Shown piece after piece: positions 5,583-35,601 of a stretch of DNA of 64,000 nucleotides. The notes beneath the pieces were generated by a model, which was given only the letters and a program-made list of their open reading frames with translations, was not told the DNA's origin and did not search any database. Made by a program: the position numbers and the translations under genes. The DNA is taken from the NCBI GenBank assembly GCA_016933615.1, contig JAFGAO010000068.1:840-64839 (forward strand), read 5' to 3'. Position 1 is the stretch's first letter; every line of letters begins with the position of its first letter. Source of the DNA: Acidobacteriota bacterium. GTDB taxonomy: Bacteria > Acidobacteriota > UBA6911.

Positions 5583-5810
5583 CGTTATAGTCTCCTTGAA
5601 CCGGGTGCGCGGCTCCGGGATTTGGAGTCTCCGCATTCCTGAGGGCAAGTCGCAAAATTTCGGAATACACATCATATGGCAGGAGGAACGTGATAACCAG
5701 TAGAGATTGGCCGGTATTCCGTTATAGGAATACGGGCCTGTCTTTAAAAACAGGCGTATACCGGGCGGCCACTCTTGGATGTGTCTGTGCCGGGCTGCTG
5801 CAGTCACGCA

Positions 5811-5839
5811 TTCATAAGGCCGGTAAAAAATGTTAGAAT
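5811..5839 (+). promoter_or_regulatory. candidate sigma70-type promoter for the AOR/TRAP block
   Basis: TTCATA (5811-5816), 17-nt spacer, then TGT-TAGAAT (extended -10, 5834-5839), about 100 nt upstream of the AOR ATG. Motif match only. Confidence 0.3.
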
Positions 5840-5938
5840 CGCCTCTCGGGATTCAGGCCCGGTGGTGTTTGGAGCCGGGAACAACCTTCTGCGCGATTTC
5901 GAAAATGACGTACCAGGAAGCAACAGGAGCAAATAATA

Positions 5939-7951: not shown

Positions 7952-8965
7952 ATGAAACACGGCCTGCCGGGCCTCCTGCTCCTGCTGATTCTGACAGGTT
8001 CGGGCTGCCCGCAAAAAAAACAGGAGATTCAACTCGCTTTCACAGGAGCCCTGCCCTCCCACGACCGACTCAGCCAGGTGCTGGAGGAATGGGGCCGGGA
8101 CCTGGAAGCGAAAAGCGGCGGAGAACTGAAAACAGTCTTTTATCCCGGAGGCATTCTCACTCCGGCGTCCCAGCTTTTTGACTCCGTAACCACCGGCATA
8201 GCCGATATCGGATTCGGCCCGACGGGAGTCACTCCCGGCCGGTTTCCCCTGACGGAGGTTCTGGAATACCCGCTGGGCATTAAAAGCGCGTTTGCCATGA
8301 CGCAATTGTCCAACGACTTTTTCCGGAAGTTCAAGCCGCGGGAATTCGACCGCGTCAAGGTTCTCTTTTTCATGAGCGCCAGTCCCGGACAGCTGCACAC
8401 CAAAAGGCCCGTCCGCAGACTCGAGGATTTAAATGGAATGAGAATACGGTGCCTCGGGGGGAACGCGTCCAAAGTGCTCAAAGCCCTGGGTGCGGTTCCC
8501 ATCGTCCTATCTACGGGGGACACCTATGATGCACTGAGGAAAGGCATCGTGGACGGAGTGGTGGCGGCATGGGATTCACTGGAAACCCTCAAATGGGGAG
8601 AAGTTTTGCCATACACTACCGTGAGCCATCATGCGGCCGTCGGCGCCCCCGGTTTCGTCGTCATGAACCGGAATGCCTGGGAAAGCCTTTCCCTGGAATT
8701 ACAGGGAATCATCGATGCCATGTCCGAGGAATATGCCGAGAAGTTGAGCAGGATCTGGGATGAAAAGGACCGCAATACCATCCAAAAGTGGAAGGCCCGG
8801 AATCATGTCTCCATCTGCTTGAGCGAGGAGGAGGAGAAAAGATGGGGCGATGCCGTATCTCCGCTATACGAAATGTTCATCAGGGAAAAATCCGCCCGGG
8901 GGCTGGATGCCGCGGCTGCATGGAAGTACTGCAAGGACTGGGTGCGCAGCAACGCCCTGCAATGA
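7952..8965 (+). CDS. dctP: TRAP transporter solute-binding protein (DctP family)
   Basis: 337 aa. Signal/lipoprotein-like N-terminus 'LLLLLILTGSGC'. It is followed by DctQ- and DctM-type genes. Confidence 0.8.
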   Translation: MKHGLPGLLLLLILTGSGCPQKKQEIQLAFTGALPSHDRLSQVLEEWGRDLEAKSGGELKTVFYPGGILTPASQLFDSVTTGIADIGFGPTGVTPGRFPLTEVLEYPLGIKSAFAMTQLSNDFFRKFKPREFDRVKVLFFMSASPGQLHTKRPVRRLEDLNGMRIRCLGGNASKVLKALGAVPIVLSTGDTYDALRKGIVDGVVAAWDSLETLKWGEVLPYTTVSHHAAVGAPGFVVMNRNAWESLSLELQGIIDAMSEEYAEKLSRIWDEKDRNTIQKWKARNHVSICLSEEEEKRWGDAVSPLYEMFIREKSARGLDAAAAWKYCKDWVRSNALQ

Positions 8966-8976
8966 CGCCGCGGGCA

Positions 8977-9091
8977 GTAGGGGCGAACCTTGTGTTCGCC
9001 CGTCTTGGGAAGAGTCACACGGTAGGGGCAAACCTTGTGTTCGCCCGTCTTGGGAAGAGTCACACGGTAGGGGCAAACCTCGTGTCCGCCC
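8977..9091 (+). repeat. REP-like palindromic element, 45-nt unit x2 plus a partial third copy
   Basis: GTAGGGGCGAACCTTGTGTTCGCCCGTCTTGGGAAGAGTCACACG at 8977-9021, repeated at 9022-9066, with a degenerate partial copy at 9067-9091. The core hairpin is GGGCGAAC/GTTCGCCC. Confidence 0.9.
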
Positions 9092-9167
9092 TCAATCCGA
9101 CACCGCCAGGACGGCAGTGCCGAATCCTGCGAACGCCCGGATGGGCAATGCCCGGGAGACTCCGATA

Positions 9168-9650
9168 ATGGGAAACCCGCTGATTCATTTTTCCGATCGC
9201 CTGAGCGCCTGGATGGAGTTTGCCGCGGGCGCCGCTCTCGTTGGAGTCATGCTGCTGATAGGTTCCGACATCGTCGGCAGGCTGGCCGGGCACCCGGTAC
9301 CGGGGACCTTTGAAATCGTTTCCCTCGCGGGCGGTTTGATTATCGGGCTCGCGCTGCCGGCAACGTCGAGATCGAAAGGGCATGTCGGTGCCGACATCCT
9401 GCTGGCGAAGCTTCCCGCGAAATCCGCTCTTCTCCTTAAAGCGGCGACGCGCCTGATCGGCATAGCCCTGTTCCTCATCGCGGCTTACGGCATGGTCATG
9501 ATGGGCGCGCGCCTGAAGGAGGCGGGAGAGGTTACGGCGGAGCTGTCCATTCCCTTCTATTGCATCCCGTATGCCATAGGGGGAGCTTTCCTGGTGCAGG
9601 CCCTGATCCTGCTGTCGGAAATTTTAATTGGTGATGCCGGATATGAGTGA
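9168..9650 (+). CDS. dctQ: TRAP transporter small permease (DctQ family)
   Basis: 160 aa from ATG 9168 ('MGNPLIHFSDRLSAWMEFAAGAAL...'), four hydrophobic segments. The 5' part of track ORF 8850..9650 only reads through the REP array. Confidence 0.8.
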   Translation: MGNPLIHFSDRLSAWMEFAAGAALVGVMLLIGSDIVGRLAGHPVPGTFEIVSLAGGLIIGLALPATSRSKGHVGADILLAKLPAKSALLLKAATRLIGIALFLIAAYGMVMMGARLKEAGEVTAELSIPFYCIPYAIGGAFLVQALILLSEILIGDAGYE

Positions 9651-10938
9651 GGTGCTGATCGGCTGTATCGGCCTATGCCTGCTGCTTGTTCTTTTCCTTA
9701 CGGGAATCGAGCTCGCCTTTGCCATGACCTGCATAGGCTTCATCGGATTTGCAATCCTCAGGTCCTGGCCAGCAGCCGTGGACCTGGTGGCCAAAGATTT
9801 TTTCGACGCTTTCGCCTCCTACGCATTTGTCGTCATACCGCTTTTTGTACTGATGGGCCAGATCGCCTACAACTCGGGCATCGCTGAAAAAATGTACGGG
9901 ACGTCCCGAAAATTCGTCGGTCACGTCCCCGGAGGCCTGGCGCTGGCCACGGTCGTCGGAGCCACAATTTTCAAAGCGATTTCGGGATCCTCGCTGGCGA
10001 CCGCCGCCACCTTTTCAAGCATCGCCGTGCCGGAAATGGACAAATGCGGATACGACAGGAAGCTGTCGACGGGAGTTGTCGCGAGCGTGGGAACGCTCGG
10101 CATTCTGCTGCCCCCAAGCGGCACGATGATCATCCTGGCCATGATCACGAATCAATCCATCGGAAAACTGTTTCTTGCCGGCATCGCTCCGGGGCTTTTG
10201 ATCGCTCTTCTGTTTCTTGCGACCATTGTCGTATGGTGCCGCATAAATCCGTCGCTTGCACCCAGGGGGGAATCTTGGGGCTGGAAAGAGCGGATCGGTT
10301 CGATACCCCGGATTCTCGGGCCCCTGCTGATCTTCGTCGTCACCATAGGGGGCCTTCTTGCGGGATTCTTCACCCCCACAGAAGCGGGCAGCGTCGGTTC
10401 CATCGCGGTTCTCCTGCTCACTGTGCTGAATCGGGACCTGGATTTCAGGGGCTTCGTGAAATCAATCCGGGAATCGCTGCGCATGGGATGCATGGTCCTG
10501 ATGCTGATCGGGGGATCGGCCGTGCTCGGCCACTTCGTGGTCGTATCGACAATTCCGGGCGCCGTCGCGGCCTGGACCCTGGAGCTGCCGCTTCCGCCTG
10601 ATCTGATCGTCGCGGTCATCCTACTTATTTATCTCATCGGCGGTTCCTTCGTCGACGACGTTGCTTTCATGATTCTGGCCACTCCCATCTTTTTCCCGGT
10701 AGCGATGAAGCTCGGGTACGATCCCGTCTGGTTCGCCGTCGCCATCGGCGTAACTCTCATGATCGGCGTGATCACGCCGCCGGTTGCCGTCGCCGCCTTT
10801 ATCGTCAAAAACATCACCCGGGAGCCGATCGGCCGGGTCTATAAGGGTGTTCTGCCGTTTTTAATTACCCTGGTTCTTTGCCTGGTCCTGCTCTTTGTTT
10901 TTCCGCAGCTGGCAACCTGCCTTCCCGGCAAATATTAG
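9628..10938 (+). CDS. dctM: TRAP transporter large permease (DctM family)
   Basis: 436 aa polytopic membrane protein overlapping the dctQ stop. The start is ambiguous: TTG 9628, ATG 9634 or ATG 9643. Confidence 0.9.
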   Translation: MVMPDMSEVLIGCIGLCLLLVLFLTGIELAFAMTCIGFIGFAILRSWPAAVDLVAKDFFDAFASYAFVVIPLFVLMGQIAYNSGIAEKMYGTSRKFVGHVPGGLALATVVGATIFKAISGSSLATAATFSSIAVPEMDKCGYDRKLSTGVVASVGTLGILLPPSGTMIILAMITNQSIGKLFLAGIAPGLLIALLFLATIVVWCRINPSLAPRGESWGWKERIGSIPRILGPLLIFVVTIGGLLAGFFTPTEAGSVGSIAVLLLTVLNRDLDFRGFVKSIRESLRMGCMVLMLIGGSAVLGHFVVVSTIPGAVAAWTLELPLPPDLIVAVILLIYLIGGSFVDDVAFMILATPIFFPVAMKLGYDPVWFAVAIGVTLMIGVITPPVAVAAFIVKNITREPIGRVYKGVLPFLITLVLCLVLLFVFPQLATCLPGKY

Positions 10939-12853: not shown

Positions 12854-14299
12854 ATGAGTGTACGTGCGTCGGTAGCAGATGTCGTGGTAATCGGCTCGGG
12901 GGCCTCAGGCTTGACAGCCGCCCTGACTGCGGCTGAAGGCGGAGCGACTGTAAGCGTTTTCGAAAAGCAGCGCGCGCCTGGCGGGACGTCGATCAATTTT
13001 GAAGGCATCTTTGCAGTTGAAAGCGACATGCAGCGGGCACAATTTATTGACTACAGCCGGGACGACGCCTTCAAAAGCATCATGGAATACAACCACTGGA
13101 AGGCAAACCCCCGCCTGGTTCGCAATATCGTCAATGAATCCGCCGAAACCATATCGTGGCTCGAGCGACAGGGTGTCGAATTTGCCGGCGTCTCCATCAA
13201 CATGCCGAAGTCGCCCCGTACCTACCACGTCGTAGCCGGCACCGGGCAGGCCGTTGTACAAGCGCTTGTTTCCAATGCAAAAGGGAAAGGCGTCGATCTG
13301 CGGATGGGAACCCCGGTCACGAAAATCCTCAAGGAAGGCGGCCGCATCACGGGCGTCATGGCTGAAGGCGGCACGGACAACATCCGGGTGAACGCCAAAG
13401 CCGTTGTGATCGCCAGCGGCGGATTCGCGAACAACCGGAAGTGGATCAAGAAGTATACGGGGTTCGAACTCGAGAAAAACCTGTTTCCCGTCGGCAACAC
13501 GGGCAAATTCGGCGACGGCATTCGCATGGCCTGGGAAGTGGGAGCCGCCCAAGAGGGCATTGGTGTCGTGGAACTGTACCGAGCCGGTCCGCTTACGACC
13601 GAAATCGGCGGCCAGGTGGAATGGCCCACGGTCCAGCCGGATCTCTGGGTCGATCCGCGCGGCGAAAGATTCTGCGATGAATCAATCGCGTTCTACGACA
13701 CCTCCGTCGGAAACATGAATGCGAAGTTCAAGGAAGGATACACCTACAGCCTTTTCGATTCATCGATCCTCGAGCGCCTGAAACAGGAAGGACTCGATAA
13801 AAACGTCAATGTGAGGACGCCTCCCGGTTCCAGGCTTACCAATTTCGACAAGGAACTCGAGATCCTTTTCAAAAAGGGGAACACGGATGTCTTTGTCGCC
13901 GATTCCGTCGAGGAACTGGCCGTCAAAATCAAGGTGGATCCGGGGGTACTGAAATCCACTGTAGATGAATACAACGGGTTCTGCGAGAGAAAGCATGATG
14001 ATCTTTTTGCCAAGGATCCCAGGTATCTGAGGCCTTTGAAGGGCCCCAAGTTTTACGCCGTGAAAGCCCATACCGTCTTCCTCGGCACCATGGGCGGAAT
14101 CAGGATCAATCAAAAAACCGAGGTCATCGACAAAAAGGATAAGGTCATCCCGGGCCTCTACGCCGCCGGATTCGATGCAGGCGGCATGTACGGCGACAGC
14201 TATCACATTTCAGTTGCTTCCGGCTCCTCGTCCGGATTCGCAGTCAATTCGGGACGCATCGCGGGCAAGAGCTTATTGAACTATATTAAAACCGTTTAA
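12854..14299 (+). CDS. FAD-dependent oxidoreductase (fumarate reductase / 3-ketosteroid dehydrogenase-like flavoprotein)
   Basis: 481 aa. Dinucleotide fold 'DVVVIGSGASGLTAALTAAEGG...EKQRAPGGTS' and C-terminal 'GLYAAGFDAGGMYG'. Confidence 0.85.
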   Translation: MSVRASVADVVVIGSGASGLTAALTAAEGGATVSVFEKQRAPGGTSINFEGIFAVESDMQRAQFIDYSRDDAFKSIMEYNHWKANPRLVRNIVNESAETISWLERQGVEFAGVSINMPKSPRTYHVVAGTGQAVVQALVSNAKGKGVDLRMGTPVTKILKEGGRITGVMAEGGTDNIRVNAKAVVIASGGFANNRKWIKKYTGFELEKNLFPVGNTGKFGDGIRMAWEVGAAQEGIGVVELYRAGPLTTEIGGQVEWPTVQPDLWVDPRGERFCDESIAFYDTSVGNMNAKFKEGYTYSLFDSSILERLKQEGLDKNVNVRTPPGSRLTNFDKELEILFKKGNTDVFVADSVEELAVKIKVDPGVLKSTVDEYNGFCERKHDDLFAKDPRYLRPLKGPKFYAVKAHTVFLGTMGGIRINQKTEVIDKKDKVIPGLYAAGFDAGGMYGDSYHISVASGSSSGFAVNSGRIAGKSLLNYIKTV

Positions 14300-16116: not shown

Positions 16117-17838
16117 TTGGATATGAATCCATCAACGCATCCGGGTAAAGTACTGGATCTTCAAGAAGCTGTAGGACGTTACGTAAAGCCCGGGATGACG
16201 CTGCACCTCGCCGCCGGCATCGGCGGCCCCAGCGCCGCGGTTTGCGAGATCATCCGGCAGTTCCGGGATAACGATCCCGGGTTCACCCTGATTCAAAGCA
16301 CCGTGACCGGACATAGTCTCAACCTCGTTCATGCCAGGCTGGTAAAAAAGCTTATCTGTTCCGTGTGTGCGAATATCTCCGCCTCCGGACGTCCGAGTCG
16401 GGTAATTCAGAATGCAATTGAAGAAAAACAGGTTGCAATGGAGAACTGGACGCTGAATTCCCTGCAGCAGCGCCTTATGGCCGGCGCGTTCGGGGTGCCC
16501 TTCATGCCCACCCGCTCCATCGTCGGGAGCAGCATAGCCGAAGAAAACGGTGAAACGTTTAAAAACATTGAAGATCCGTTCGGCTCGGGAGCCGCAGTCG
16601 GGCTGGCGGGCGCTCTCGTGCCCGATATTTCCATCATCCATGGATGCGTTGCGGACTCCGAAGGCAACACTATTGCAGCCGCTCCCTACGGGGAGGATCT
16701 CTGGGGCGCCCTGGCCAGCAGTGGAGGCGCCGTCGTCACCGTCGAGAAAATCGTTCCCACGGAGTTCATTCAGAGATACGCCGCCCTGGTCAAAATCCCC
16801 GCTTACGCGGTGAACGCCGTGGTGGCGGCCCCCCTGGGACTGCATCCGTTTTCCTTGGCCAACCCGGGCATCGTCGGTATGCAACCCTATGAAAAGGACG
16901 TGGATTTTCTCGACACCCTCTATGAAGCTTCCGCCGGCGATGATACGCTGGATGCATGGATTCATGAATGGGTTCTTCGGTGCGAAAACCACAGCCAGTA
17001 CCTCGACAAGCTCGGTGAAAAAAGGATTGCGGATCTTAAAAGAAAGTCCGGGAAGGTGAAAACCGCCCCGCCTCCGGCGCCGCCGGCCCTAATCAAAGCG
17101 GATCAGGAATTCAAACCAAAGGAAATGATGCTGATTGCCATGGCAAGGGAAATATTGACCAGCGTGACCCGGAAGGGACACAAGGCCGTGCTTGCGGGCG
17201 CGGGCCTGGCCGCTACAGCGGCATTCCTGGCCTATTTCCGGAGCGTGCAAAACGGCCGGGCCGGATTCGAACTGGCTACCGGCAACGGCCAGATCGGCTA
17301 CACGCCCGTCGCGGGCCAATCCATACTCGCCGGCGAAGCCAATGTGAGAACGTCGAAAATGCTGACCGACACAACCGTGATGCAGGGCGTCATTGTGGGG
17401 GGAGCGAATAACCGGTGCCTGAGCGTTCTCGGCGCCGGCGAAATGGACCGGTTCGGCAACATAAACTCCACGACGGCTTCCGACGGCAAGTTTCTCGTCG
17501 GTTCCGGGGGCGTCAACGATGCGCTCAACGCGCGCGAAGCCATCCTCTGCTTGAAGCAGTCCAAAGACCGGTTCGTGGACCGGCTTGCCTATGTGACGGG
17601 CCGGGGCGGAAACGTAACGACCGTGGTATCGAACATGGGCATTTTCAGGAAGGCGGATTCCAAGGGCGAACTGCATCTGGAGGCGTGCTTCCCCGAAACT
17701 CGCGGCCGGAGCATCGAAGAGAAGGTCCATGAAATTCGAAATCATTGCGGGTGGGAGCTTAAGACGGCGCCCGCAGTTGAGGAAATTCCCCGGCCGTCTC
17801 CGGAGGAACTCCAGCTTCTCCGCTGGCTGAGTCCCTGA
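16117..17838 (+). CDS. family-I CoA-transferase, fused alpha+beta domains (glutaconate/3-oxoacid type)
   Basis: 573 aa. The N-terminal half resembles GctA/ScoA ('GMTLHLAAGIGG', 'FMPTRS'). A Pro/Ala linker 'KTAPPPAPPALIK' joins it to a beta-like half ('GAGEMDRFGNINST', 'GSGGVNDA'). Confidence 0.75.
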   Translation: MDMNPSTHPGKVLDLQEAVGRYVKPGMTLHLAAGIGGPSAAVCEIIRQFRDNDPGFTLIQSTVTGHSLNLVHARLVKKLICSVCANISASGRPSRVIQNAIEEKQVAMENWTLNSLQQRLMAGAFGVPFMPTRSIVGSSIAEENGETFKNIEDPFGSGAAVGLAGALVPDISIIHGCVADSEGNTIAAAPYGEDLWGALASSGGAVVTVEKIVPTEFIQRYAALVKIPAYAVNAVVAAPLGLHPFSLANPGIVGMQPYEKDVDFLDTLYEASAGDDTLDAWIHEWVLRCENHSQYLDKLGEKRIADLKRKSGKVKTAPPPAPPALIKADQEFKPKEMMLIAMAREILTSVTRKGHKAVLAGAGLAATAAFLAYFRSVQNGRAGFELATGNGQIGYTPVAGQSILAGEANVRTSKMLTDTTVMQGVIVGGANNRCLSVLGAGEMDRFGNINSTTASDGKFLVGSGGVNDALNAREAILCLKQSKDRFVDRLAYVTGRGGNVTTVVSNMGIFRKADSKGELHLEACFPETRGRSIEEKVHEIRNHCGWELKTAPAVEEIPRPSPEELQLLRWLSP

Positions 17839-17941: not shown

Positions 17942-19174
17942 GTGAACATGAGCGGCGGACCATTACAGGGCATAAGGGTTATCGAGTGCGCCGGCTATCT
18001 GAGCGCCCCTACGGCATGCTATATGCTGGGGGACCTGGGCGCCGAAGTAATCAAGATAGAGGATCGGGTGACGGGGGATCCCTCACGGGGGACTTCGGCC
18101 GTTTTCGGCTCCTCCATGACGCTGGCCAACGGCGAAAACATCCTGTTCGAAACGGCGAACCGGAATAAAAAAAGCCTGACGCTGGATCTGAAAAAGGAAA
18201 AAGGCCGGCAGCTGCTCTACGAGCTGGTTTCCAGAGCGGACGTTTTCTGCACCAACTTCACCCAAAAGGCCATAGAAAAACTCAAGATCGATTTCGAAAC
18301 CCTGAAGAAATACAACCCGAAACTGGTTTACGGCCTTGCCACCGGCTACGGCCTCAAGGGCCCCGAGAGCGCCCGGCGCGCCTTCGACAGCGTCGCGCAG
18401 GCCCGCTCCGGAATTATGTACGCTCTAGGCGGCGAACCGGACGCCCCCCCGGCCCAAATCGGAGGCCCTGTCTTCGACCAGATGACCGGAACCCTGCTGG
18501 TTTATGCAATCCTGGCAGCCCTGATCGCGCGCGACAGGCAGGGCAAGGGCCAGCAGGTTGAGGTGTCGCTCCTGGGATCGGGAATTCATCTGCAGGCGTA
18601 TAACCTGAACACGGCCCTTCTGCGGGGGCGCCAGATCCCCAGACCTTCCAGAAGGTCTCTGAAAAATCCGATGGCGAACCATTTCGAATGCGCCGACGGC
18701 GAATGGATTCTTCTTTCGGAGCCCCAGGCCGACCGTTTCTGGCCCGCTTTCTGCAATGCGCTGGGCATCCAGCAGCTGGAAAAGGATGAAAAATATGCCG
18801 ATGCAGCCGTCCGCAGGGAGAATTTCCGGGAATTGCTGGATATTATTGAACGGGTCTTCATAACCAAAACCAGAGACGAATGGATGAAAATCCTGGACGA
18901 AAAGGGCGAAGGCATCGCCTACTCTCCCGTCCTGAGACCGACGGACCTCGCCAACGACGCCCAGGCGCTCGAAAACGGCTACATCGCCACCATCGAGCAT
19001 CCGTCCCTGGGAGCCATCAAGATGGTGGGCAATCCGGTCTACTTCAGCGATACGCCGGTAACGGTAGACGGATATGCACCCTGCTTCGGCCAGAACACGG
19101 AGGAAGTCCTTCTGGAGGTCTGCGGCTGCGACTGGGACAAAATACAGGAGCTAAAGGACGAGGAAGTCATATAA
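17942..19174 (+). CDS. family-III (CaiB/BaiF) CoA-transferase
   Basis: 410 aa. 'GIRVIECAGYLSAPTACYMLGDLGAEVIKIE' and C-terminal 'GQNTEEVL' are typical of the family. The start is GTG 17942 or ATG 17948. Confidence 0.9.
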   Translation: MNMSGGPLQGIRVIECAGYLSAPTACYMLGDLGAEVIKIEDRVTGDPSRGTSAVFGSSMTLANGENILFETANRNKKSLTLDLKKEKGRQLLYELVSRADVFCTNFTQKAIEKLKIDFETLKKYNPKLVYGLATGYGLKGPESARRAFDSVAQARSGIMYALGGEPDAPPAQIGGPVFDQMTGTLLVYAILAALIARDRQGKGQQVEVSLLGSGIHLQAYNLNTALLRGRQIPRPSRRSLKNPMANHFECADGEWILLSEPQADRFWPAFCNALGIQQLEKDEKYADAAVRRENFRELLDIIERVFITKTRDEWMKILDEKGEGIAYSPVLRPTDLANDAQALENGYIATIEHPSLGAIKMVGNPVYFSDTPVTVDGYAPCFGQNTEEVLLEVCGCDWDKIQELKDEEVI

Positions 19175-19178
19175 GAAG

Positions 19179-19242
19179 GTTCCCCGTTCAGGGTTCAGCA
19201 TTGAAAGTCAACCTTGAACGATGAATCCTGAACCTTGAACGG
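19179..19242 (+). repeat. heptad-type inverted repeat element (d)
   Basis: GTTCCCC GTTCAGG GTTCAGC (19179-19199) faces TGAACGA TGAATCC TGAACCT TGAACGG (19215-19242). The 15-nt arms 19184-19198 and 19228-19242 pair with one G.U position. Confidence 0.85.
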
Positions 19243-19259
19243 TAAGCGGGAGTCGATCG

Positions 19260-20726
19260 ATGATAACAACCTTAAGGAATAAGCGGCTGGATGAAAAAGA
19301 ATTTCTGAAAATGCGGGATCCGGTTCTCGACCTATGGCCGACGGGGCGCGAGGTGGATCTCGACGAAGCTGTCGAATATCAAAAGCAGCTGCCCGACTCC
19401 AAGAACTGGCACAAGCTGGCCCGGAAAATGAATGCGGAAGGCCGCACCGCCATATTCCCCAGGGCGGGAACCGGGCTGCTCGAGGCCCAGATCCGGCTCT
19501 CCCGGAAACTCGAGGAATCGTGCGTTCCCTTCATCCCGGTAACGTCCGACAGCTACACGCGCCAGCTGGAATTCGAAAAGGTCGACGGCATCCTGGATGA
19601 AATGCGAAAGACCGGCCGCAACCTGCTCAACGGCTTCCCCCTCATCAACTACGGGGTGAAACAGACGCGCAGACTTATTGAGAGCGTCACCGTGGGCGCC
19701 TTCAACCCCAGGCTTTCGCTCAAATCCTACAAGCTGGCGACCGAAATCTCCTTTGCCGCCGGCATGACGGCCGTCGCCGCATGCCCCTTCATCTCCTGGG
19801 CGGCCTATGAAAAGGACGCGACGCTGGAAGAATCCATGGCCGTCAACCAGTACGTGCACCGGCTGATCGGCTACTACGCCGACCGTGGAGTGGTCATTTC
19901 CACGGACAACCACGGATGGATTCTGACGGGGATGCAGCCGATGACCGTAAACCTGGCCACCACCATTGCCGACGCCATAATGGTCGCCGAGCAGGGGGGG
20001 AGGAGCATCACGTCGGTCGTTCATCTGATGGGCAACATGGCCCAGGATCTTGCCTGGATTCGCGTGACCCCAAGACTGCTGAGGGAATACCTGGACAAGC
20101 TGGGATACAGGGATGTGGAGATCGCGGGCGTTTTCGCGCAGCACACTCCCCTTTTCCCCATGCCCCAGAGCATGGGCGGCGCATTCGCTTTCCCGAACTA
20201 CACGGCCGTCGTCGCCGCACTCGGGAAAACGGAAGCCGTATCCATCCGCACCATCGACGAAGCTCTCGGTGTTCCTACGGAAGAATCGCACACCCTCAGT
20301 TACGAATCCGCAAACTGGCTGCTCCAAATAGTCCGTGGCCAGAAGTTCGAACTGCAAAGCGCCCAGGTCGACGAGGAAGCCGCCGTTGCCGAGGCTGAAA
20401 TACGCGCGTTCATGGACAGGATCCTGGAAGTCGGCGACGGCGACGTAATCGTCGGATGCCTGAAGTGCGTCGAAGAAGGGTTCCTCGATTCCAGTTTCAG
20501 TCCCAACAAACAGGTTCGCGACCAGGTGATAGGCATCAAGGACAGCCGCGGTGCGATCCGGTGGAGGGAATTCGGCAACCTTCCGCTGCCGGAAGAGATC
20601 AAGAAATTCCACCGTGAAAAAGTGGCGGAAAGAGAAAAAGCGGAAGGCCGCGAAATGGACTACGACGCCCTCGTTCAGGATTTCTGGGCTTTCAGCAAAG
20701 GCCGGCTAACCGGGAAACCGGAATAA
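19260..20726 (+). CDS. glutamate mutase epsilon (GlmE/MutE)-like B12-dependent mutase, large subunit
   Basis: 488 aa, collinear with clostridial methylaspartate mutase E as I remember it: 'LDLWPTGREVDLDEAVEY', 'FPRAG', 'SYTRQ', 'LLNGFPLINYGVK', C-terminal 'FSKGRLTGKPE'. Confidence 0.85.
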   Translation: MITTLRNKRLDEKEFLKMRDPVLDLWPTGREVDLDEAVEYQKQLPDSKNWHKLARKMNAEGRTAIFPRAGTGLLEAQIRLSRKLEESCVPFIPVTSDSYTRQLEFEKVDGILDEMRKTGRNLLNGFPLINYGVKQTRRLIESVTVGAFNPRLSLKSYKLATEISFAAGMTAVAACPFISWAAYEKDATLEESMAVNQYVHRLIGYYADRGVVISTDNHGWILTGMQPMTVNLATTIADAIMVAEQGGRSITSVVHLMGNMAQDLAWIRVTPRLLREYLDKLGYRDVEIAGVFAQHTPLFPMPQSMGGAFAFPNYTAVVAALGKTEAVSIRTIDEALGVPTEESHTLSYESANWLLQIVRGQKFELQSAQVDEEAAVAEAEIRAFMDRILEVGDGDVIVGCLKCVEEGFLDSSFSPNKQVRDQVIGIKDSRGAIRWREFGNLPLPEEIKKFHREKVAEREKAEGREMDYDALVQDFWAFSKGRLTGKPE

Positions 20727-20729
20727 TAA

Positions 20730-20817
20730 GGTTTCCCGTTCTGCGTTTCACGTTTCCCGTTAAAATTAATAATTACCAAACGAGAAACGGGGAGCCGGAA
20801 ACGGGGAACGGTTTTTT
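20730..20817 (+). repeat. heptad-type inverted repeat element (e) ending in a T-run
   Basis: GTTTCCC GTTCTGC GTTTCAC GTTTCCC (20731-20758), an AT-rich loop, then GAGAAAC GGGGAGC CGGAAAC GGGGAAC (20782-20809), followed by G and TTTTTT (20812-20817). Confidence 0.8.
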
Positions 20818-20834
20818 GAAGGAGAACCATCAAA

Positions 20835-21257
20835 GTGACCAATCCAACCGTGATAACGGGAACCGTGGGCAAAGATGCGCACGTCATAGGAACAAAAATA
20901 TTATCCCGCGCCCTGCGGGAAGCCGGTTTCAACGTCGTGGAACTGGGGATCCTGACTCCCCCCGAGGAATTCATTCAGGCCGCCCTCGACAACAAAGCCG
21001 ATGCCATTCTCATGAGCTCGCTTTATGGAATGGGAGAGAACGATGTGCAGGGATTCAAAGAGAAATGTATCCAGGCGGGGCTGAATGATGTGCTTCTTTA
21101 CATCGGCGGGAATCTGAGCGTGGGCAAACACGACTTCTCCGAAGCCGAAGCGACCTTCAAAAAACTCGGCTTCGACCGCGTGTACCCGCCGGCATCGGAC
21201 GTGAAAAAGGCCATCGCGGATCTCCGGGCCGATCTGAAAGCCAAAGGAAAAGCTTAG
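20835..21257 (+). CDS. glutamate mutase sigma (GlmS/MutS)-like B12-binding subunit
   Basis: 140 aa. DxHxxG cobalamin motif 'GKDAHVIGTK', plus 'AGFNVVELG', 'ADAILMSSLYG' and 'LLYIGGNL' as in MutS/GlmS. GTG start 11 nt after AAGGAG. Confidence 0.85.
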   Translation: MTNPTVITGTVGKDAHVIGTKILSRALREAGFNVVELGILTPPEEFIQAALDNKADAILMSSLYGMGENDVQGFKEKCIQAGLNDVLLYIGGNLSVGKHDFSEAEATFKKLGFDRVYPPASDVKKAIADLRADLKAKGKA

Positions 21258-21265
21258 GAAATACA

Positions 21266-22507
21266 ATGCGCCCAAGTATGCTGGGAGGCTATCGCGCCCT
21301 GGACCTGACCGATGAAAGGGGATTCCTGTGCGGCAAGATCCTGGCCGAACTCGGAGTGGACGTGATCAAGGTGGAGAAACCCGGGGGCGATCCCGCTCGG
21401 AAGATCGGACCATTCTGGCACGACCAGGCGGACCCTGAAAAAAGCCTGTACTGGTTTGCATACAACAGCAGCAAACGCGGAATCACCCTCGACCTGGAAT
21501 CCGTGGAAGGGAAAAGCCTCTTTCGCGGCCTGGTCCAAACGTCCGATTTCGTCGTTGAATCCTTCGATCCGGGCGTATTGGGCAAGCTTGGGTTCGGCTA
21601 CCGGGAATTGCGGCGCATCAAAAAGGACATCATCCTCACGTCGATCACTCCGTTCGGCCAGTCCGGGCCCTACAGCCGGTACAAGGCTGCGGACCTGACC
21701 CTCATGGGAATGGCCGGGGAACTTTTCATGACCGGTGATTCCGACAAACCCCCGGTCAACATCAGCATGCCGCAAGCCTGCATGCATGCGGGGGCGGATG
21801 CGGCCGTCGGTTCCATGCTGGCGCACCACCACAGAAGAATGACCGGCGAAGGCCAGCACGTGGACGTAGCCATGCAGCACAGCGCCGCCTGGTTCCTGGC
21901 CCAGACCATCCCGCACTGGGAAATGGAAAACCTGATCCTCGGTCGCGTGGGTACCTTCCGCACCAGCAGCCGCGGCACGCTGCAGCGACAGGTCTGGCCG
22001 TGCAGGGACGGATACATATTCTTTTTCATGATCGGGGGGCAACAGGGGGCCAAGACCGGCTACCAGCTGGTGCAATGGATGGAAGAAGAAGGAATGGCCG
22101 ACGAATTTCTTAAGGGCTATAAATGGGAAGAATTCGACATGGCCACGGCCACGCAGGAGCTGATCGATAAAATCTCCCGGCCGATCGCGGAATTTTTCCT
22201 GACTCGAACCAAGAAGGAAGCCCTGGATGCCGCGATGTCCAGAAACATTTCCATCTGCCCCCTTATGGGCAACCGGGACCTGCTCGAAGACCCGAACCTG
22301 GCCGCCAGGGGCTTCTGGAAGCCGATTGCGCATCCCCACTTGAGAACCACGATCCCCTATCCCAGGCAGTTCGCGCGATCCTCGGAAAACGATACGGAGA
22401 CCCGGTTCCGGGCTCCACGCATCGGTGAACACAATACGGAAGTCTACAGGGAACTCGGCCTGTCAGCCGACCGGGTGGAAGAATTGAAAAAACAGGGAGT
22501 TATATAG
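21266..22507 (+). CDS. family-III (CaiB/BaiF) CoA-transferase
   Basis: 413 aa. 'YRALDLTDERGFLCGKILAELGVDVIKVEKPGGDP' and C-terminal 'GEHNTEVYRELGL'. Confidence 0.9.
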   Translation: MRPSMLGGYRALDLTDERGFLCGKILAELGVDVIKVEKPGGDPARKIGPFWHDQADPEKSLYWFAYNSSKRGITLDLESVEGKSLFRGLVQTSDFVVESFDPGVLGKLGFGYRELRRIKKDIILTSITPFGQSGPYSRYKAADLTLMGMAGELFMTGDSDKPPVNISMPQACMHAGADAAVGSMLAHHHRRMTGEGQHVDVAMQHSAAWFLAQTIPHWEMENLILGRVGTFRTSSRGTLQRQVWPCRDGYIFFFMIGGQQGAKTGYQLVQWMEEEGMADEFLKGYKWEEFDMATATQELIDKISRPIAEFFLTRTKKEALDAAMSRNISICPLMGNRDLLEDPNLAARGFWKPIAHPHLRTTIPYPRQFARSSENDTETRFRAPRIGEHNTEVYRELGLSADRVEELKKQGVI

Positions 22508-24689: not shown

Positions 24690-24755
24690 AGCAGTAAGCA
24701 GTTGGCAGTAATCTGATTCGGATTCGGGCTCAGATGAAATAGGGTATAAGTGACG

Positions 24756-24780
24756 GTAGGGGCGAACCTTGTGTTCGCCC
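24756..24780 (+). repeat. REP-like palindromic element, single copy
   Basis: GTAGGGGCGAACCTTGTGTTCGCCC, in the same orientation as the 8977 array. Confidence 0.9.
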
Positions 24781-24830
24781 TGGTAACGAAAAGTTGGCAG
24801 GAGGCGGGAGAAAGAAGCCAGGAGTCAGAA

Positions 24831-26057
24831 GTGACAGACACTGGGAAAAAGGTATTTGATGATCTGAAGATTGCGGCTTTCAGCTGGGCCATGGTCGGCC
24901 CGCTGACCCTGAAATTCTTCGCCGATTACGGGGCGGCGGTTATCCGCGTGGAAACGAGCTTGCGCCCCTGCGTCACACGGACCTCGGCGCCCTACAAAGA
25001 CAACATCCCCGGCATCAATCGCAGCGGCTACTTCAACCATTTCAGCGCCAACATGATGAGCCTGTCGCTGAACATGAAAAGCCCGCAGGGTCTGGATGTG
25101 GCCAAAGAGCTGATTGCCTGGTCGGATGTCGTCATGGAGAACTTCACCCCGGGAGTCATGGACAAATGGGGCCTCGGCTTCCAAGAGCTGAAGAAGATCA
25201 AGCCGGACATCATCATGGTGCGGCAGAACGGCTTCGGCGTCGAAGGCCCCTACAAAAACCTGGCCGCCTTCGGGATGATCCTTTCCGCCATCGCCGGAAT
25301 CCCCAACTACATCGGTTGGCCGGACGGAGGGCCCCTTCCCGTCGGCGTGGGCGCCTATACCGACAGCATCAGCCCGCGTTTCGCCTCGGCCGCCCTGATC
25401 GCGGCCCTGGAATACCGGGACAGGACCGGGAAAGGCCAGCTCATCGACCTGGCGCAATTTGAAACCGCTCTCTATTTTCTGATGCCGGGGCTACTCGATA
25501 CCTGTGTCAACGATCGCGAGCCTGTCCGAAACGGCAATGCCGTCGAATGGGCCGCGCCGCACAATGTCTACCCCTGCAAGGGAAAGGAGCGGTGGTGCAC
25601 CATCGCCGTGACCGAAGAAGTCCAGTGGCCGGCGCTTTGCAGCGCCGTGGGCAAACCCTGGCTGGCGCAGGATCCGCGGTTCGACACCCTGAAGCGCAGG
25701 AAAGAAAATGAAAAGGAGCTGGACGAGGAAATAGCATCCTGGACGAAAGAGCGGACGCCGGAAGAAGTGATGAACGTGCTTCAGGCGGCGGGTGTTGCGG
25801 CCGGAGTCGTCGAAAATGCATCCGACGTGTTCGAGGATCCCCAGTTGCGCCGGCGGGGGCTTTTCTGGCCCATGGAGCACGGCGAGATGGGCGCATTCAC
25901 GCACCTGGGAACCAGCATGGTCCTTTCGGAAACACCGGCGCAGGCGGAAGCGCCGAGCCCGTGCATCGGGGAGCATAACGAATATATACTCACAAAAATC
26001 CTGGGCAAGACGGATGATGAATTTGTCGAGCTGCTAGCCGCAGGCGCGCTTACATAA
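24831..26057 (+). CDS. family-III (CaiB/BaiF) CoA-transferase
   Basis: 'LKIAAFSWAMVGPLTLKFFADYGAAVIRVE' and C-terminal 'GEHNEYILTKILG'. Start moved to GTG 24831, 6 nt after GGAG, because the track start at 24750 lies inside the REP element. Confidence 0.85.
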   Translation: MTDTGKKVFDDLKIAAFSWAMVGPLTLKFFADYGAAVIRVETSLRPCVTRTSAPYKDNIPGINRSGYFNHFSANMMSLSLNMKSPQGLDVAKELIAWSDVVMENFTPGVMDKWGLGFQELKKIKPDIIMVRQNGFGVEGPYKNLAAFGMILSAIAGIPNYIGWPDGGPLPVGVGAYTDSISPRFASAALIAALEYRDRTGKGQLIDLAQFETALYFLMPGLLDTCVNDREPVRNGNAVEWAAPHNVYPCKGKERWCTIAVTEEVQWPALCSAVGKPWLAQDPRFDTLKRRKENEKELDEEIASWTKERTPEEVMNVLQAAGVAAGVVENASDVFEDPQLRRRGLFWPMEHGEMGAFTHLGTSMVLSETPAQAEAPSPCIGEHNEYILTKILGKTDDEFVELLAAGALT

Positions 26058-26972: not shown

Positions 26973-27052
26973 CCTTGGAGTGCGGCAGCTTGCTGCCGCC
27001 TTCGTTATATAGATTCCAAATCAAAGCGGCAGCTTGCTGCCGCACTCCAAGG
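26973..27052. repeat. composite inverted repeat (27-nt arms)
   Basis: CCTTGGAGTGCGGCAGCTTGCTGCCGC (26973-26999) and GCGGCAGCTTGCTGCCGCACTCCAAGG (27026-27052). Each arm also carries its own GCGGCAGC/GCTGCCGC mini-palindrome. The spacer is 26 nt. Confidence 0.85.
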
Positions 27053-27088
27053 ACTCTTCTTCGCATTACTATTTCAGGAGATGAAGGC

Positions 27089-28462
27089 ATGGATGCTGCA
27101 GTGGAATTTGCCCGGAATTTCGCGAATACGAAATACGAGGATCTTTCTTCCGAAGTCGTCGACGCGACGAAGAAGGAGATCCTGGATCTCATGGGTGTCG
27201 CCCTGGGCGGCATTTCCCAGCCGGGGGCTACGCACGTGCGCAGGCTCATGGAGGCATGGGGAGGCAAGGAAGAAAGCAGCATCATCGGCGGCAGCCTGAA
27301 GGTTCCGGCGCCGAACGCGGCCCAGGCGAACGCCACCATGGCGCACGCCCTGGATTTCGACGACGTGCACGAAGCGGCAGTCATGCACCCCGGGATAGCG
27401 GCCATCCCCGTTGCATTGGCCGTAGCGGAAGCAGAAGGAAATTTCAGCGGCAGGGAACTGATCACGGCTACGGCCCTGGGCGTCGACATGATGTGCCGTC
27501 TGGCCTTGGCGACCACCCCCGGTAAAAATCCGATCGACCTTGGATGGCACCTTACTTCCCTGTTCGGCTTTGTCGGATCTGCCGCTACGGCGGCCAGGAT
27601 TATGGGACTGCCCGAAGAAAAAATAGTCGATGCCATCGGTATCGGCTACCACCAGTGTGCGGGAAACGGCCAGTGCGTCAAAGACGGGGCGTTGACCAAG
27701 AGGCTCGGACCGGGATTCGCCATAAAAGGCGGCATCACCGCGGCTCTATTGGCGAAAATGGGCGTGACGGGATCGACGAACAGCTTTGAAGGCGAGTGGG
27801 GCCTCTACCAACAGTATATGGACGGGGATTACAGCCGGGAAATTCTCCTCGAGGACCTGGGCAAACGCTTCGAAGGTGTCCATGTCGCCATCAAGCCCTA
27901 TCCCTGCTGCCGGGGCATTCATCCCGCAATCGATGCCGGACTCGCACTGGCTATCGAAGACGGTGTCCGCAGCGAACACATCAAGGAAATTGTATTGACC
28001 GTGACGGAGGCGCACCTTTCCCTGCTCTGTACGCCTGAAGACGCTAAAAAATCACCCAGGAGCCCCGTAGACGCCCAGTTCAGCATTCCCTGGGGCGTCG
28101 CTTCGGCCATTGTGGGGAAACGGGTCGGTCTGGACAATTTCACGGAAAAAGCCATTACGAACAGCGATGTCCTGGAGGTCACACAAAAGATGCGGCTGGA
28201 GGTGGACGACGCGCTGAGCAAGCCCGGACCGGACCCGACGCGGATTAAGATTATTACGCATGACGGGAATGTGTTTGAGAAAGTGGTGCACACTCCCCTC
28301 GGCAGTCTTGATCGCCCCATGTCGTACGATGACTGCGCAAACAAATTCAGGGATTGCGCAAAAAGCCTCGATCCCGATCGTGTGGAACAACTCATAGAAC
28401 TGGTCGGAACACTGGAGCAGGTTGACGATATACGGGCAATAATTCAACTTCTAACAACATGA
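27089..28462 (+). CDS. MmgE/PrpD family protein (2-methylcitrate dehydratase-like)
   Basis: 457 aa from ATG 27089, 8 nt after GGAG. 'AVEFARNFANTKYEDLSSEVVDATKKEILD', 'HALDFDD', 'HPG' and 'KPYPCCRGIH' are typical PrpD-family blocks. Confidence 0.85.
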   Translation: MDAAVEFARNFANTKYEDLSSEVVDATKKEILDLMGVALGGISQPGATHVRRLMEAWGGKEESSIIGGSLKVPAPNAAQANATMAHALDFDDVHEAAVMHPGIAAIPVALAVAEAEGNFSGRELITATALGVDMMCRLALATTPGKNPIDLGWHLTSLFGFVGSAATAARIMGLPEEKIVDAIGIGYHQCAGNGQCVKDGALTKRLGPGFAIKGGITAALLAKMGVTGSTNSFEGEWGLYQQYMDGDYSREILLEDLGKRFEGVHVAIKPYPCCRGIHPAIDAGLALAIEDGVRSEHIKEIVLTVTEAHLSLLCTPEDAKKSPRSPVDAQFSIPWGVASAIVGKRVGLDNFTEKAITNSDVLEVTQKMRLEVDDALSKPGPDPTRIKIITHDGNVFEKVVHTPLGSLDRPMSYDDCANKFRDCAKSLDPDRVEQLIELVGTLEQVDDIRAIIQLLTT

Positions 28463-28564: not shown

Positions 28565-29410
28565 ATGGGGGACGTTTTAAAAGGAAAAGTGGCATTCGTT
28601 ACCGGTGCGGCGGCGAAGCGGGGTATGGGAAGGGCCGTTGCCGTGCGGCTGGCCAAGGAAGGCGCCGACGTGATGGTGACCGATGTATTTGCATCGCCCA
28701 AAAGCGCCTGGGCCGGGGATGAAGGCTGGAAAGGGCTGGAAGATGTCGTAAAGGAAATTGAAGCGGTCGGTCGTAAAGCCGCTTCGGCCGTGGCAAACGT
28801 GGTCAACCTGGCCGAATGCGAAGCGGCCGTCAAGGACACGATCGACAAACTGGGCCGGATCGACATCCTGGTCAACTGCGCCGGAACACGCGGCCCCGTC
28901 GGCGTGAACATTGTCGACGGCGACGTAAAGGACTGGGAAGCGCTGTTTGACGTAAACGCAATCGGTACCATGGTCATATCCAAAGCCGTCGGCAAGGAAC
29001 TGATCCGCCAGAACCGGGGCGGCAAGATCGTGCACATCGCTTCGGCCGCGGGCAAGCTTCCCTGCCCCGGAAGCGCCGCCTATGCAGCCTCCAAATGGGC
29101 CGTTATCGGGATCACCCAGGCCCTGGCCATGGAACTGGCCCCCTACAAGATCAACGTCAACTCGATCAATCCCGGCTTCTTTGCCACCAACCTGCGCGAC
29201 GACGACGCGACCATGCACAGCAAGAAAAAAGGGATTACGGTGGAAGAGTTCCGGAAGGACGAATACAAGATGCTTTCTGACATGGTTCCCCTGAAGCGTA
29301 TGGGAACGGTTGACGACATCGCCAACCTTATCTTCTTCCTGGTCACAGACCAGTCGGAATACCTGACGGGTGTGGATATTAATATTACGGGCGGCACATT
29401 GATGCATTAA
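28565..29410 (+). CDS. short-chain dehydrogenase/reductase (SDR)
   Basis: 281 aa. 'VAFVTGAAAKRGMGRA' and the YxxxK site 'YAASKWA'. Confidence 0.9.
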   Translation: MGDVLKGKVAFVTGAAAKRGMGRAVAVRLAKEGADVMVTDVFASPKSAWAGDEGWKGLEDVVKEIEAVGRKAASAVANVVNLAECEAAVKDTIDKLGRIDILVNCAGTRGPVGVNIVDGDVKDWEALFDVNAIGTMVISKAVGKELIRQNRGGKIVHIASAAGKLPCPGSAAYAASKWAVIGITQALAMELAPYKINVNSINPGFFATNLRDDDATMHSKKKGITVEEFRKDEYKMLSDMVPLKRMGTVDDIANLIFFLVTDQSEYLTGVDINITGGTLMH

Positions 29411-34614: not shown

Positions 34615-34645
34615 GAATTTCCTGCCGCGGGCCGGAAAAATTATC

Positions 34646-35581: not shown

Positions 35582-35601
35582 CAGCATCTTCGGAGTCTGA
35601 A

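Follow-up and report, generated by a model that had tools for sequence, protein, structure and literature searches.

A predicted glutamate-mutase-like B12 enzyme with a remodelled substrate pocket in a conserved acyl-CoA operon of Acidobacteriota

The DNA analysed here is a stretch of 64,000 nucleotides from an Acidobacteriota bacterium (assembly GCA_016933615.1, contig JAFGAO010000068.1), hereafter the window. It carries two adjacent genes that resemble those for the catalytic (GlmE) and the B12-binding (GlmS) subunits of glutamate mutase. An earlier interpretation made from the letters of the window (hereafter the sequence-only reading) had proposed that this pair encodes a carbon-skeleton mutase for a dicarboxylate without an amino group. 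We examined the residues of the predicted pocket, the relatives of the two proteins and the genes that accompany them.

The mutase gene pair and its pocket

The pair is arranged in E-then-S order, with a 108-bp spacer between the two open reading frames (ORFs):

19260..20726, +, GlmE-like catalytic TIM-barrel subunit of a predicted adenosylcobalamin (AdoCbl)-dependent mutase, 488 aa (PF06368, PDB and AlphaFold2/Foldseek matches)
20835..21257, +, GlmS-like B12-binding subunit, 140 aa, with the motif DAHVIG at nt 20874-20891

The first ORF is covered end to end by PF06368 (Met_asp_mut_E; E 2.5e-122, 409 bits), which is its sole Pfam match, i.e. PF01642, the catalytic domain of the methylmalonyl-CoA mutase (MCM) family, was not matched. 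It was aligned by phmmer with the PDB chain 1CB7_B at E 7e-100, and its identity to GlmE of Clostridium cochlearium is 37.3% in a global pairwise alignment. The AlphaFold2 (AF2) model of the protein (pLDDT 91.7, 41 homologues in the input) was matched by Foldseek to glutamate mutase E (6H9E_B, 1CB7_B) with a TM-score of 0.95 and a root-mean-square deviation of 1.8 A, the runners-up, aminomutases and methylmalonyl-CoA mutases, reaching a TM-score of only ~0.5. On the NCBIfam equivalog TIGR01503 the ORF obtained 365 bits, short of the cut-off of 390.1, which is probably the reason why the identical protein of an Acidobacteria metagenome-assembled genome (MAG) is named 'hypothetical' by NCBI (P0001). 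The GlmS-like ORF is above threshold on both NF002612 (196.5 bits, cut-off 110) and TIGR01501 (171 bits, cut-off 135.8), and matches 1I9C_A at E 2e-44 with the DxHxxG, SxL and GG motifs all aligned, DAHVIG being residues 14-19 of the protein.

Glutamate mutase (GlmES/MutSE, EC 5.4.99.1; C. cochlearium and C. tetanomorphum; structures 1CCW, 1CB7, 1I9C and 6H9E) is likewise made of two subunits, and its S subunit is ~52% identical to that of the window, with the three motifs in common. We consider it fairly probable, judging from these matches, that the ORF pair 19260-21257 encodes a two-subunit AdoCbl-dependent carbon-skeleton mutase of glutamate mutase architecture. Neither a cobalamin riboswitch nor any other Rfam family was found in the 64-kb window, and promoter and terminator scans of the window gave background level only.

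Pocket residues were mapped onto the E subunit of C. cochlearium glutamate mutase (1CCW/1CB7/1I9C), whose numbering is referred to as canonical. The mapping was consistent over three alignments, i.e. phmmer against the PDB, MAFFT (120 sequences) and global pairwise alignment, and gave the following positions:

19461..19463, +, R68 (FPRAG), canonical Arg66, claw residue, kept in the three alignments
19560..19562, +, R101 (SYTRQ), canonical Arg100, claw residue, kept in the three alignments
19710..19715, +, R151 (NPRLS), canonical Arg149, claw residue, kept, and L152, canonical His150, lost (alignments)
19767..19799, +, remodelled loop TAVAACPFISW following barrel strand 4 (ungapped alignment; in the AF2 model, residue 172 is the last of the strand)
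19905..19913, +, Asp216-x-His218 where strand 5 ends, canonical Glu214-x-Phe216 (alignments, AF2 model)
20247..20261, +, Arg330 to Glu334, canonical Lys326 (changed) and Glu330 (kept) (alignments)

Arg66, Arg100 and Arg149 form the 'arginine claw' that holds the carboxylates in glutamate mutase. Glu171, which we take to be both the contact to the substrate amino group and the base, is replaced by Ala173 (nt 19776-19778) and, within the same loop, Gly172-174 (GGG) are replaced by Ala-Cys-Pro and Tyr177 by Ser179. His150, the Gly172-174 loop, Tyr177 and Tyr181 are presumably further pocket features or contacts of the canonical enzyme, of which Tyr181 is kept as Y183; Lys326 and Glu330 are presumed to contact the adenosyl ribose. 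The query and glutamate mutase thus have Arg66, Arg100, Arg149, Tyr181, Asn123 and Glu330 in common, whereas they differ at Glu171Ala, His150Leu, Gly172-174Ala-Cys-Pro, Tyr177Ser, Glu214Asp, Phe216His, Lys326Arg and ~15 more positions that are invariant in canonical enzymes.

The segment from R149 to Y181 aligns with the query without gaps, and the sole acidic residue among query residues 152-183 is E162, which corresponds to the invariant E160; the loss of Glu171 is therefore not an alignment artefact. The gene pair, its order and its DAHVIG motif had been correctly named in the sequence-only reading, as the Pfam, NCBIfam and PDB matches agree. The same is true of its pocket assignments: the three claw arginines are kept, both loop sequences that it compared (TSNEGGGISYN for the clostridial enzyme and TAVAACPFISW for the query) are correct, and ungapped alignment to the crystallised enzyme places an alanine, A173, at the position of Glu171.

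Relatives of the mutase form a multi-phylum superclade

Among 1.84 billion cluster representatives, two relatives of the GlmE-like protein were found at 47-48% identity (P0121, from Oscillospiraceae, and P0122), and all others drop to ~37%. A second search, seeded with P0122, retrieved a large group of proteins 55-88% identical to it, from Chloroflexota, Desulfobacterales, Thermodesulfobacteriota, Syntrophorhabdus, Syntrophales and Bathyarchaeia. In a neighbor-joining tree of 140 sequences, the query family and the P0121 and P0122 groups are monophyletic (100/100 bootstraps) and stand apart from the canonical enzymes; this superclade spans Acidobacteriota, Syntrophorhabdales, Desulfobacterota, Chloroflexota, Bathyarchaeia and Oscillospiraceae. 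The claw is kept and Glu171 is gone in every sampled member, and the E-then-S order, or a fusion of E with S, characterises the superclade. The fusion found in Oscillospiraceae (P0121/P0277) has no informative operon around its gene, and the contigs of P0387 and P0406 are too short to show gene context.

A scan in which every GTDB species was represented by a single genome yielded 20 loci, all of them (20/20) in Acidobacteriota MAGs, with GlmE-like proteins 62-92% identical to the query. The pocket signature is kept over these 20 species and the GlmE-like gene is always accompanied by a GlmS gene.

Alignment columns were compared between 31 canonical and 28 superclade sequences. Invariant in both sets are 39 columns, including R66, R100, R149, N123, Y181 and E330, and 24 columns invariant in the canonical set are replaced in the superclade. 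The latter include His150, Glu171, Gly172, Gly173, Tyr177, Pro180, Met294 and Phe297, together with Glu214 (invariably Asp in the superclade), Phe216 (replaced by Asp or His), Lys326 (by Arg) and Asn340 (by His). The glutamate at position 171 occurs in 100% of the canonical sequences and in 0% of those of the superclade, where most members have Leu instead, P0121 has Pro and the query branch has Ala or Ser; at position 150 the superclade has Leu, Met or Phe. Most superclade members carry Asp173 and Asp216, and the query branch has Cys or Ser at 173 and His at 216 (canonical numbering), this histidine (His218 of the query) being a marker of the branch. These branch-specific residues at 171, 173 and 216 suggest that substrates may differ between sub-branches. 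In the AF2 model, the changed positions coincide with, or immediately follow, the C-terminal ends of strands 3, 4, 5, 7 and 8, and it is on this face that TIM barrels have their active sites.

The database names of superclade proteins are all automatic ('methylaspartate mutase epsilon subunit' or 'hypothetical'). Our literature search found no publication on the superclade, on glutamate-mutase-like paralogues or on hydroxyglutarate, methylmalate or methylitaconate mutases of such a kind, nor any relevant co-mention with Acidobacteria, Syntrophorhabdus or bbsEF.

Outside the superclade, dozens of the PF06368 representatives P0123-P0211 (50%-identity clusters) have non-canonical pocket signatures, and many lack one or more of the claw arginines. 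The diversity of PF06368 goes well beyond what its single known activity would lead one to expect, and the family holds many uncharacterised paralogue clades.

The operon and the gene neighbourhoods of relatives

In the window, the mutase genes are embedded in the following series:

7952..10938, +, TRAP transporter DctPQM (Pfam), likely an uptake system; directly upstream of the aldehyde dehydrogenase gene in L012, L013, L015 and L024
14580..16061, +, aldehyde dehydrogenase (ALDH), first gene of the conserved block; PF00171, 538 bits, 87-93% conserved in 12 loci
16117..17838, +, fused GctA+GctB-like protein (GctAB-like) of family I CoA-transferase fold, 573 aa; 1POI_A 4e-22, 1POI_B 1.6e-6
17942..19174, +, CaiB1, family III CoA-transferase, SUGCT/formyl-CoA-transferase-like; PF02515, 370 bits, 10UH 1e-52
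21266..22507, +, CaiB2, family III CoA-transferase, like chain A of benzylsuccinate CoA-transferase; 9FN0_A 3e-71, 244 bits, next match 135 bits
22590..24689, +, OYE1, flavoenzyme with old yellow enzyme (OYE) and pyridine-nucleotide-disulphide oxidoreductase domains (Pfam), NCR/FadH-like
24750..26057, +, CaiB3, family III CoA-transferase, like chain B of benzylsuccinate CoA-transferase; 9FN0_B 1.6e-75, 258 bits, next match 171 bits
26076..26954, +, ECH, crotonase family (PF00378), in which a single residue of the classical catalytic Glu pair is recognisable
26975..28462, +, MmgE/PrpD-family protein (PrpD-like; Pfam), similar to IRG1/cis-aconitate decarboxylase and IDS epimerase; 7BRA 4e-39
28565-29410, +, SDR1, short-chain dehydrogenase/reductase (SDR; Pfam), kept in all long loci
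29492-30313, +, SDR2, short-chain dehydrogenase/reductase (Pfam), kept in 5 loci

Searches with the window proteins (tblastn) recovered a block of 11-12 genes in nearly every sufficiently long locus of the 20, in the order ALDH, GctAB-like, CaiB1, GlmE, GlmS, CaiB2, OYE1, CaiB3, ECH, PrpD-like, SDR1 and sometimes SDR2. Phylogeny and neighbourhood census therefore bear out the sequence-only reading on a wider scale, the loss of Glu171 being common to a monophyletic multi-phylum superclade and the operon being conserved.

That reading had also described CoA-transferases bracketing the mutase, which is true of the positions (17942-19174 and 21266-22507) but misleading as to the enzymes. CaiB2 and CaiB3 match chains A and B of 9FN0, respectively, and hence look like a heteromeric succinyl-CoA:substituted-succinate CoA-transferase of the BbsE/F type. 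A single enzyme composed of the flanking CaiB1 and CaiB2 was considered and rejected, since both these matches and the pairing of orthologues designate CaiB3 as the partner of CaiB2. CaiB1 is 74-91% conserved across loci and matches SUGCT (9BR6) at 1.5e-50. The GctAB-like protein, kept in 18 related loci, has further PDB matches to AibA, a decarboxylase, and IpdA, a ring-opening hydrolase; the catalytic-Glu motif (ESG/SENG) is not evident in it, the beta-half region reading FELATGNGQIG, and the protein may not be a transferase. OYE1 is closest to 2-naphthoyl-CoA reductase (NCR; 6QKG, 7e-73), followed by 2,4-dienoyl-CoA reductase (1PS9, 1e-50), and ECH shows weak similarity to hydroxycinnamoyl-CoA hydratase/lyase. 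The true start of the PrpD-like ORF is probably Met38. Its assignment as 2-methylcitrate dehydratase was rejected, as it obtained 49 bits on the PrpD equivalog and its closest structures are IRG1/CAD. Upstream of the operon, a gene for a soluble fumarate-reductase-type flavoprotein (12854-14299) is found in three related loci only (L006, L009 and L010); the protein obtained 360 bits on a vinylphenol reductase model, below its cut-off, and is also TcuA-like.

Several of these partners also adjoin GlmE-like genes outside Acidobacteriota. Orthologue pairs of CaiB2 and CaiB3 do so in L027, L028 (Syntrophorhabdales) and L114, PrpD-family genes in L004, L027 and L114, and OYE/FadH-like homologues of OYE1 in L028 and L115; the crotonase next to the GlmE-like gene of L028 is 71% identical to the window ECH, and two SDR1-like genes adjoin the GlmE/S pair of L115. 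Judging from these neighbourhoods, the partners were associated with the mutase before the Acidobacteriota operon existed. GlmE-like genes of L030 lie near those for a xanthine-dehydrogenase-type Mo-hydroxylase and a petal-death/dimethylmalate-lyase-like protein, and neighbours in L027 and L114 are about as close to the 2-hydroxymethylglutarate dehydrogenase of Eubacterium barkeri as to any solved enzyme. We also observed that two different E genes flank one GlmS gene, followed by MutL, in L030 (1773-12910), that a second E gene with GlmS stands beside the OYE and the two SDR genes in L115 (1934-11917), and that an aldehyde:ferredoxin oxidoreductase (AOR) gene adjoins the GlmE-like gene in L032.

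MutL, the reactivase, and methylaspartate ammonia-lyase (MAL) were searched for with the proteins of a canonical locus (L026, order GlmS-MutL-GlmE-MAL). Neither was matched by tblastn in the six frames of the window, even at E 10, as the sequence-only reading had stated, nor was either found in the 20 related Acidobacteriota loci. Within 10 kb of the mutase, MAL is absent from all 20 species as well as from five relatives belonging to other phyla; MutL is often present beside superclade genes outside Acidobacteriota (L004/L027, L030 and L114). The query locus, ordered E-S and set within a CoA-transferase/acyl-CoA operon, thus differs from the canonical S-L-E arrangement with its methylaspartase.

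These results bear on whether the enzyme could be a divergent but true glutamate mutase, which would bind the amino group through e.g. Asp216/His218 and rely on methylaspartase and MutL encoded elsewhere. The S subunit exceeds the glutamate-mutase equivalog cut-offs, the E subunit is just 25 bits under its own, and the claw, Tyr181 and Glu330 are kept. However, 20 further canonical-invariant positions have changed along with Glu171, His150, Tyr177 and the GGG loop, the clade is separated from the canonical enzymes with full bootstrap support, MAL is lacking near the mutase in all the species cited above, and the partners are CoA-transferases and acyl-CoA enzymes, which the methylaspartate pathway does not need. 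We therefore regard this explanation as distinctly improbable. It is hardly credible that the protein is a relic of glutamate mutase, either catalytically dead or with a regulatory role, as the loss of the catalytic Glu171 and the lack of a nearby reactivase might suggest, given that the gene and its pocket signature are conserved over 20 species, with 80-92% sequence identity, that the motifs for B12 binding and ribose contact have stayed intact and that GlmS is always present alongside. Since the B12 motifs, the Glu in contact with the ribose and the clamp for two carboxylates are all kept, and the protein is under strong constraint in 20 species, we take the pair to be a predicted active AdoCbl mutase.

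Proposed reaction, competing substrates and the rest of the window

We think it rather probable that the mutase acts on a non-amino pair, 2-substituted glutarate / 2-substituted 3-methylsuccinate. The replacements of Glu171 by Ala and of His150 by Leu argue against an amino substituent, and the three arginines, invariant across the superclade, argue for two free carboxylates. Glutarate-type CoA-transferase homologues on one side of the mutase and the substituted-succinate type on the other fit such a pair rearranged as the free acid. The central proposal of the sequence-only reading, a GlmES-type mutase for a non-amino substituted succinate or glutarate, is thereby strengthened by the loss of Glu171, the superclade, the strand-end location of the changes and the CoA-transferase partners.

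In the mechanism that we propose, B12 would be bound base-off/His-on by the GlmS-like subunit via DAHVIG, and the three arginines of the GlmE-like TIM barrel would clamp the two free carboxylates of a C5-type dicarboxylate in the glutamate pose, the alpha-amino group no longer being recognised and the C2 substituent being other than NH3+. The adenosyl radical would take a hydrogen, the C2 fragment would undergo a 1,2-shift and the hydrogen would be given back. This step would take place on the free acid within a CoA-ester pathway, with CoA esters before and after the mutase and a direction of flux that we can only suggest. The upstream GctAB-like and SUGCT-like proteins would serve the linear-acid side; the downstream BbsE/F-like pair would act as succinyl-CoA:substituted-succinate CoA-transferase ahead of a bbs-like processing set (the NCR/FadH-like ene-reductase, the crotonase and the two SDRs), and the IRG1/PrpD-like enzyme would act on a related free di- or tricarboxylate.

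Among possible substituents, our guess is an itaconate-type (methylene or alkylidene) pair, i.e. 2-methyleneglutarate / 3-methylitaconate or a close analogue. This preference stems from the hydrophobic substitutions at positions 150 and 171, from the itaconate-type CoA esters on which BbsE/F and BbsH act in the bbs pathway, from the formation of itaconate by IRG1-family enzymes together with the recurrence of an ene-reductase-type flavoenzyme beside these mutases, and from the neighbours in L030 and L027/L114, which recall nicotinate fermentation. The migrating groups tabulated for AdoCbl mutases include -CH(NH3+)COO- for glutamate mutase, -C(=CH2)COO- for 2-methyleneglutarate mutase and -COSCoA for methylmalonyl-CoA mutase (PMC6257451).

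2-Methyleneglutarate mutase (Mgm, EC 5.4.99.4), from nicotinate fermentation by E. barkeri, is an AdoCbl enzyme that acts on the same skeleton with a non-amino, non-polar migrating group, and we would guess its reaction to be the most likely one for the window mutase. Mgm is a single polypeptide of 614 aa. The Mo-hydroxylase, dimethylmalate-lyase-like and 2-hydroxymethylglutarate-dehydrogenase-like genes that create the likeness stand beside relatives and not beside the window mutase, and none of the nicotinate-pathway genes (methylitaconate isomerase, hydroxymethylglutarate dehydratase and dehydrogenase, dimethylmalate lyase) is among the Pfam assignments of the operon. In a census of 2009, Mgm formed a sequence class apart from glutamate mutase and was present in no sequenced genome (PMC2667541).

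As a second choice we retain 2-hydroxyglutarate / 3-methylmalate, with which the minimal module of L028 (BbsE/F-like pair, crotonase and mutase) would close a route from mesaconate to 2-hydroxyglutarate. Glutamate mutase itself slowly turns over this pair.

Several points weigh against the proposed reaction. The substrate is deduced from two lines, pocket composition and gene context. Polar or ionisable groups persist in the pocket (Asp173 and Asp216 in most of the superclade, His218 in the query branch), and with them a hydroxy, an oxo or even a different amino substrate could be accommodated. No reactivase lies near the mutase in the Acidobacteriota loci, though relatives in other phyla have MutL. 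The GctAB-like protein has no evident catalytic Glu, so that a scheme in which CoA is removed, the acid rearranged and CoA put back may fail for that gene. Finally, according to the Pfam assignments, the operon contains no methylitaconate isomerase, lyase or thiolase, and for lack of these enzymes its genes cannot be assembled into any complete known pathway.

The four CoA-transferase-fold genes, together with the crotonase and the enoyl-CoA-reductase-like enzyme of the operon, would be explained if the substrate of the mutase were itself a CoA thioester and not a free acid. The pocket and the fold speak otherwise, the three carboxylate-binding arginines being invariant in the superclade and the TM-score being 0.95 to GlmE versus ~0.5 to MCM-type acyl-CoA mutases, and there is no PF01642 domain; we find a thioester substrate highly improbable. 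The MCM-family acyl-CoA mutases, including that of the alkylsuccinate step, likewise perform a B12-dependent 1,2-shift from branched to linear in an anaerobic dicarboxylate pathway, whereas they belong to PF01642 and act on CoA esters, as opposed to the PF06368 assignment and two-free-carboxylate clamp of the window mutase. As the mutase of alkylsuccinate metabolism is an MCM-family enzyme, the analogy drawn in the sequence-only reading stands as a functional likeness and fails as a family relationship.

The operon was also compared with the bbs operon of anaerobic toluene degraders. Both have the BbsE/F-like family III pair, and in both a substituted succinate is, or in the window would be, activated by succinyl-CoA; the window operon has one crotonase and two SDR genes, assigned at family level only, as possible counterparts of the enoyl-CoA hydratase BbsH and the BbsCD SDR pair. 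It differs in lacking BbsG (acyl-CoA dehydrogenase) and BbsAB thiolase domains, with the NCR/FadH-like flavoenzyme in the place of BbsG, and in having no linked fumarate-adding glycyl radical enzyme (GRE). Conversely, bbs operons have neither a B12 mutase nor an IRG1/PrpD-like gene.

A GRE does occur in the window, 14 kb downstream of the mutase:

34592-35581, GRE activase, best matches to 1,2-eliminase-type families
35563-38046, GRE, best matches to 1,2-eliminase-type families

Its Cys loop reads GLGCVYP, with Tyr where 1,2-eliminases carry the catalytic Glu, and its Gly motif reads VRIGGFSAYF. No NCBIfam equivalog was matched by the GRE, and no small-subunit ORFs were found beside it; X-succinate synthases have small subunits (PMC13450708). 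The gene lies past the conserved block, as synteny with the 20 related genomes stops at the SDR genes. Orthologues of OYE2, a second flavoenzyme with OYE and FAD/NAD domains (31462-33546), were found in 14 other metagenome contigs, linked neither to the mutase operon nor to a GRE. For these reasons (an eliminase-like GRE without small subunits, outside the conserved block, and unlinked OYE2 orthologues), the earlier suggestion that the mutase handles GRE-derived dicarboxylates finds no support. OYE2 is ~45% identical to OYE1, and its orthologues are 78-89% identical in many metagenome contigs.

The BbsE/F-like and NCR-like partners nonetheless leave room for an alternative, namely a substituted succinate that stems from the degradation of aromatics or hydrocarbons. 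Under this explanation, a mutase of the same kind would accept a bulky aryl or alkyl substituent (e.g. a benzyl-, phenyl- or alkyl-substituted succinate / glutarate pair), and its substrates would be substituted succinates derived from anaerobic aromatic or hydrocarbon degradation, including the products of fumarate-adding GREs. The closest solved relatives of three partners are aromatic enzymes (benzylsuccinate CoA-transferase and 2-naphthoyl-CoA reductase), to which may be added the weak likeness of ECH to hydroxycinnamoyl-CoA hydratase/lyase, that of the optional upstream flavoprotein to vinylphenol reductase, the relatives in Syntrophorhabdales, known aromatic degraders, and the GRE 14 kb away. 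The scores of the partners are, however, all far under equivalog level, the GRE has the shortcomings just described, and the operon lacks a BbsG-type acyl-CoA dehydrogenase and a BbsAB-type thiolase. The pocket itself gives a divided answer, some residues having been made smaller (E171A, Y177S and M294T) and others larger (G172A, I175F and N178W). On balance we judge a bulky substituent unlikely.

More broadly, we propose, tentatively and short of an even chance, that the superclade comprises B12 mutases for a different rearrangement of non-amino dicarboxylates, which together with the BbsE/F-like proteins and the crotonase would form an unknown anaerobic route linking branched C5 acids of the itaconate/mesaconate type to the glutarate/2-oxoglutarate pool. 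To our knowledge, one substrate pair and reaction has been recognised in the glutamate mutase family since the 1960s, and we know of very few families of AdoCbl carbon-skeleton mutases. If the proposal is true, it adds a new B12 enzyme activity and an example of how substrate specificity evolves in B12 radical enzymes, the radical machinery and the carboxylate clamp being kept and the rest of the pocket rebuilt. It would also reveal an unrecognised dicarboxylic-acid pathway in the abundant but uncultured anaerobes that inhabit sediments, peat and bioreactors (Acidobacteriota, Syntrophorhabdales, Desulfobacterota, Chloroflexota and Bathyarchaeia). Genes of this kind are now annotated 'methylaspartate mutase' by JGI and other pipelines, a label that would then mislead metabolic reconstructions into assuming glutamate fermentation or a methylaspartate cycle.

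As for the remainder of the window, the GRE gene is followed by an SDR gene (38091-38873) and by a gene for an 806-aa double family III CoA-transferase fusion (38884-41304), part of which resembles the BbsE/F-like CaiB2. At the other end, 3-oxoacid CoA-transferase A/B subunits, two crotonases and a nitronate-monooxygenase-like protein are encoded on the minus strand (870-5807), and a tungsten-type AOR gene on the plus strand (5939-7786) is overlapped by a 589-aa ORF on the minus strand (5804-7573) that has no family match and is probably spurious. Two tandem paralogous genes, each for a TPR-repeat protein of ~1300 aa, occupy 47968-56075. The whole window is dense in acyl-CoA metabolism.

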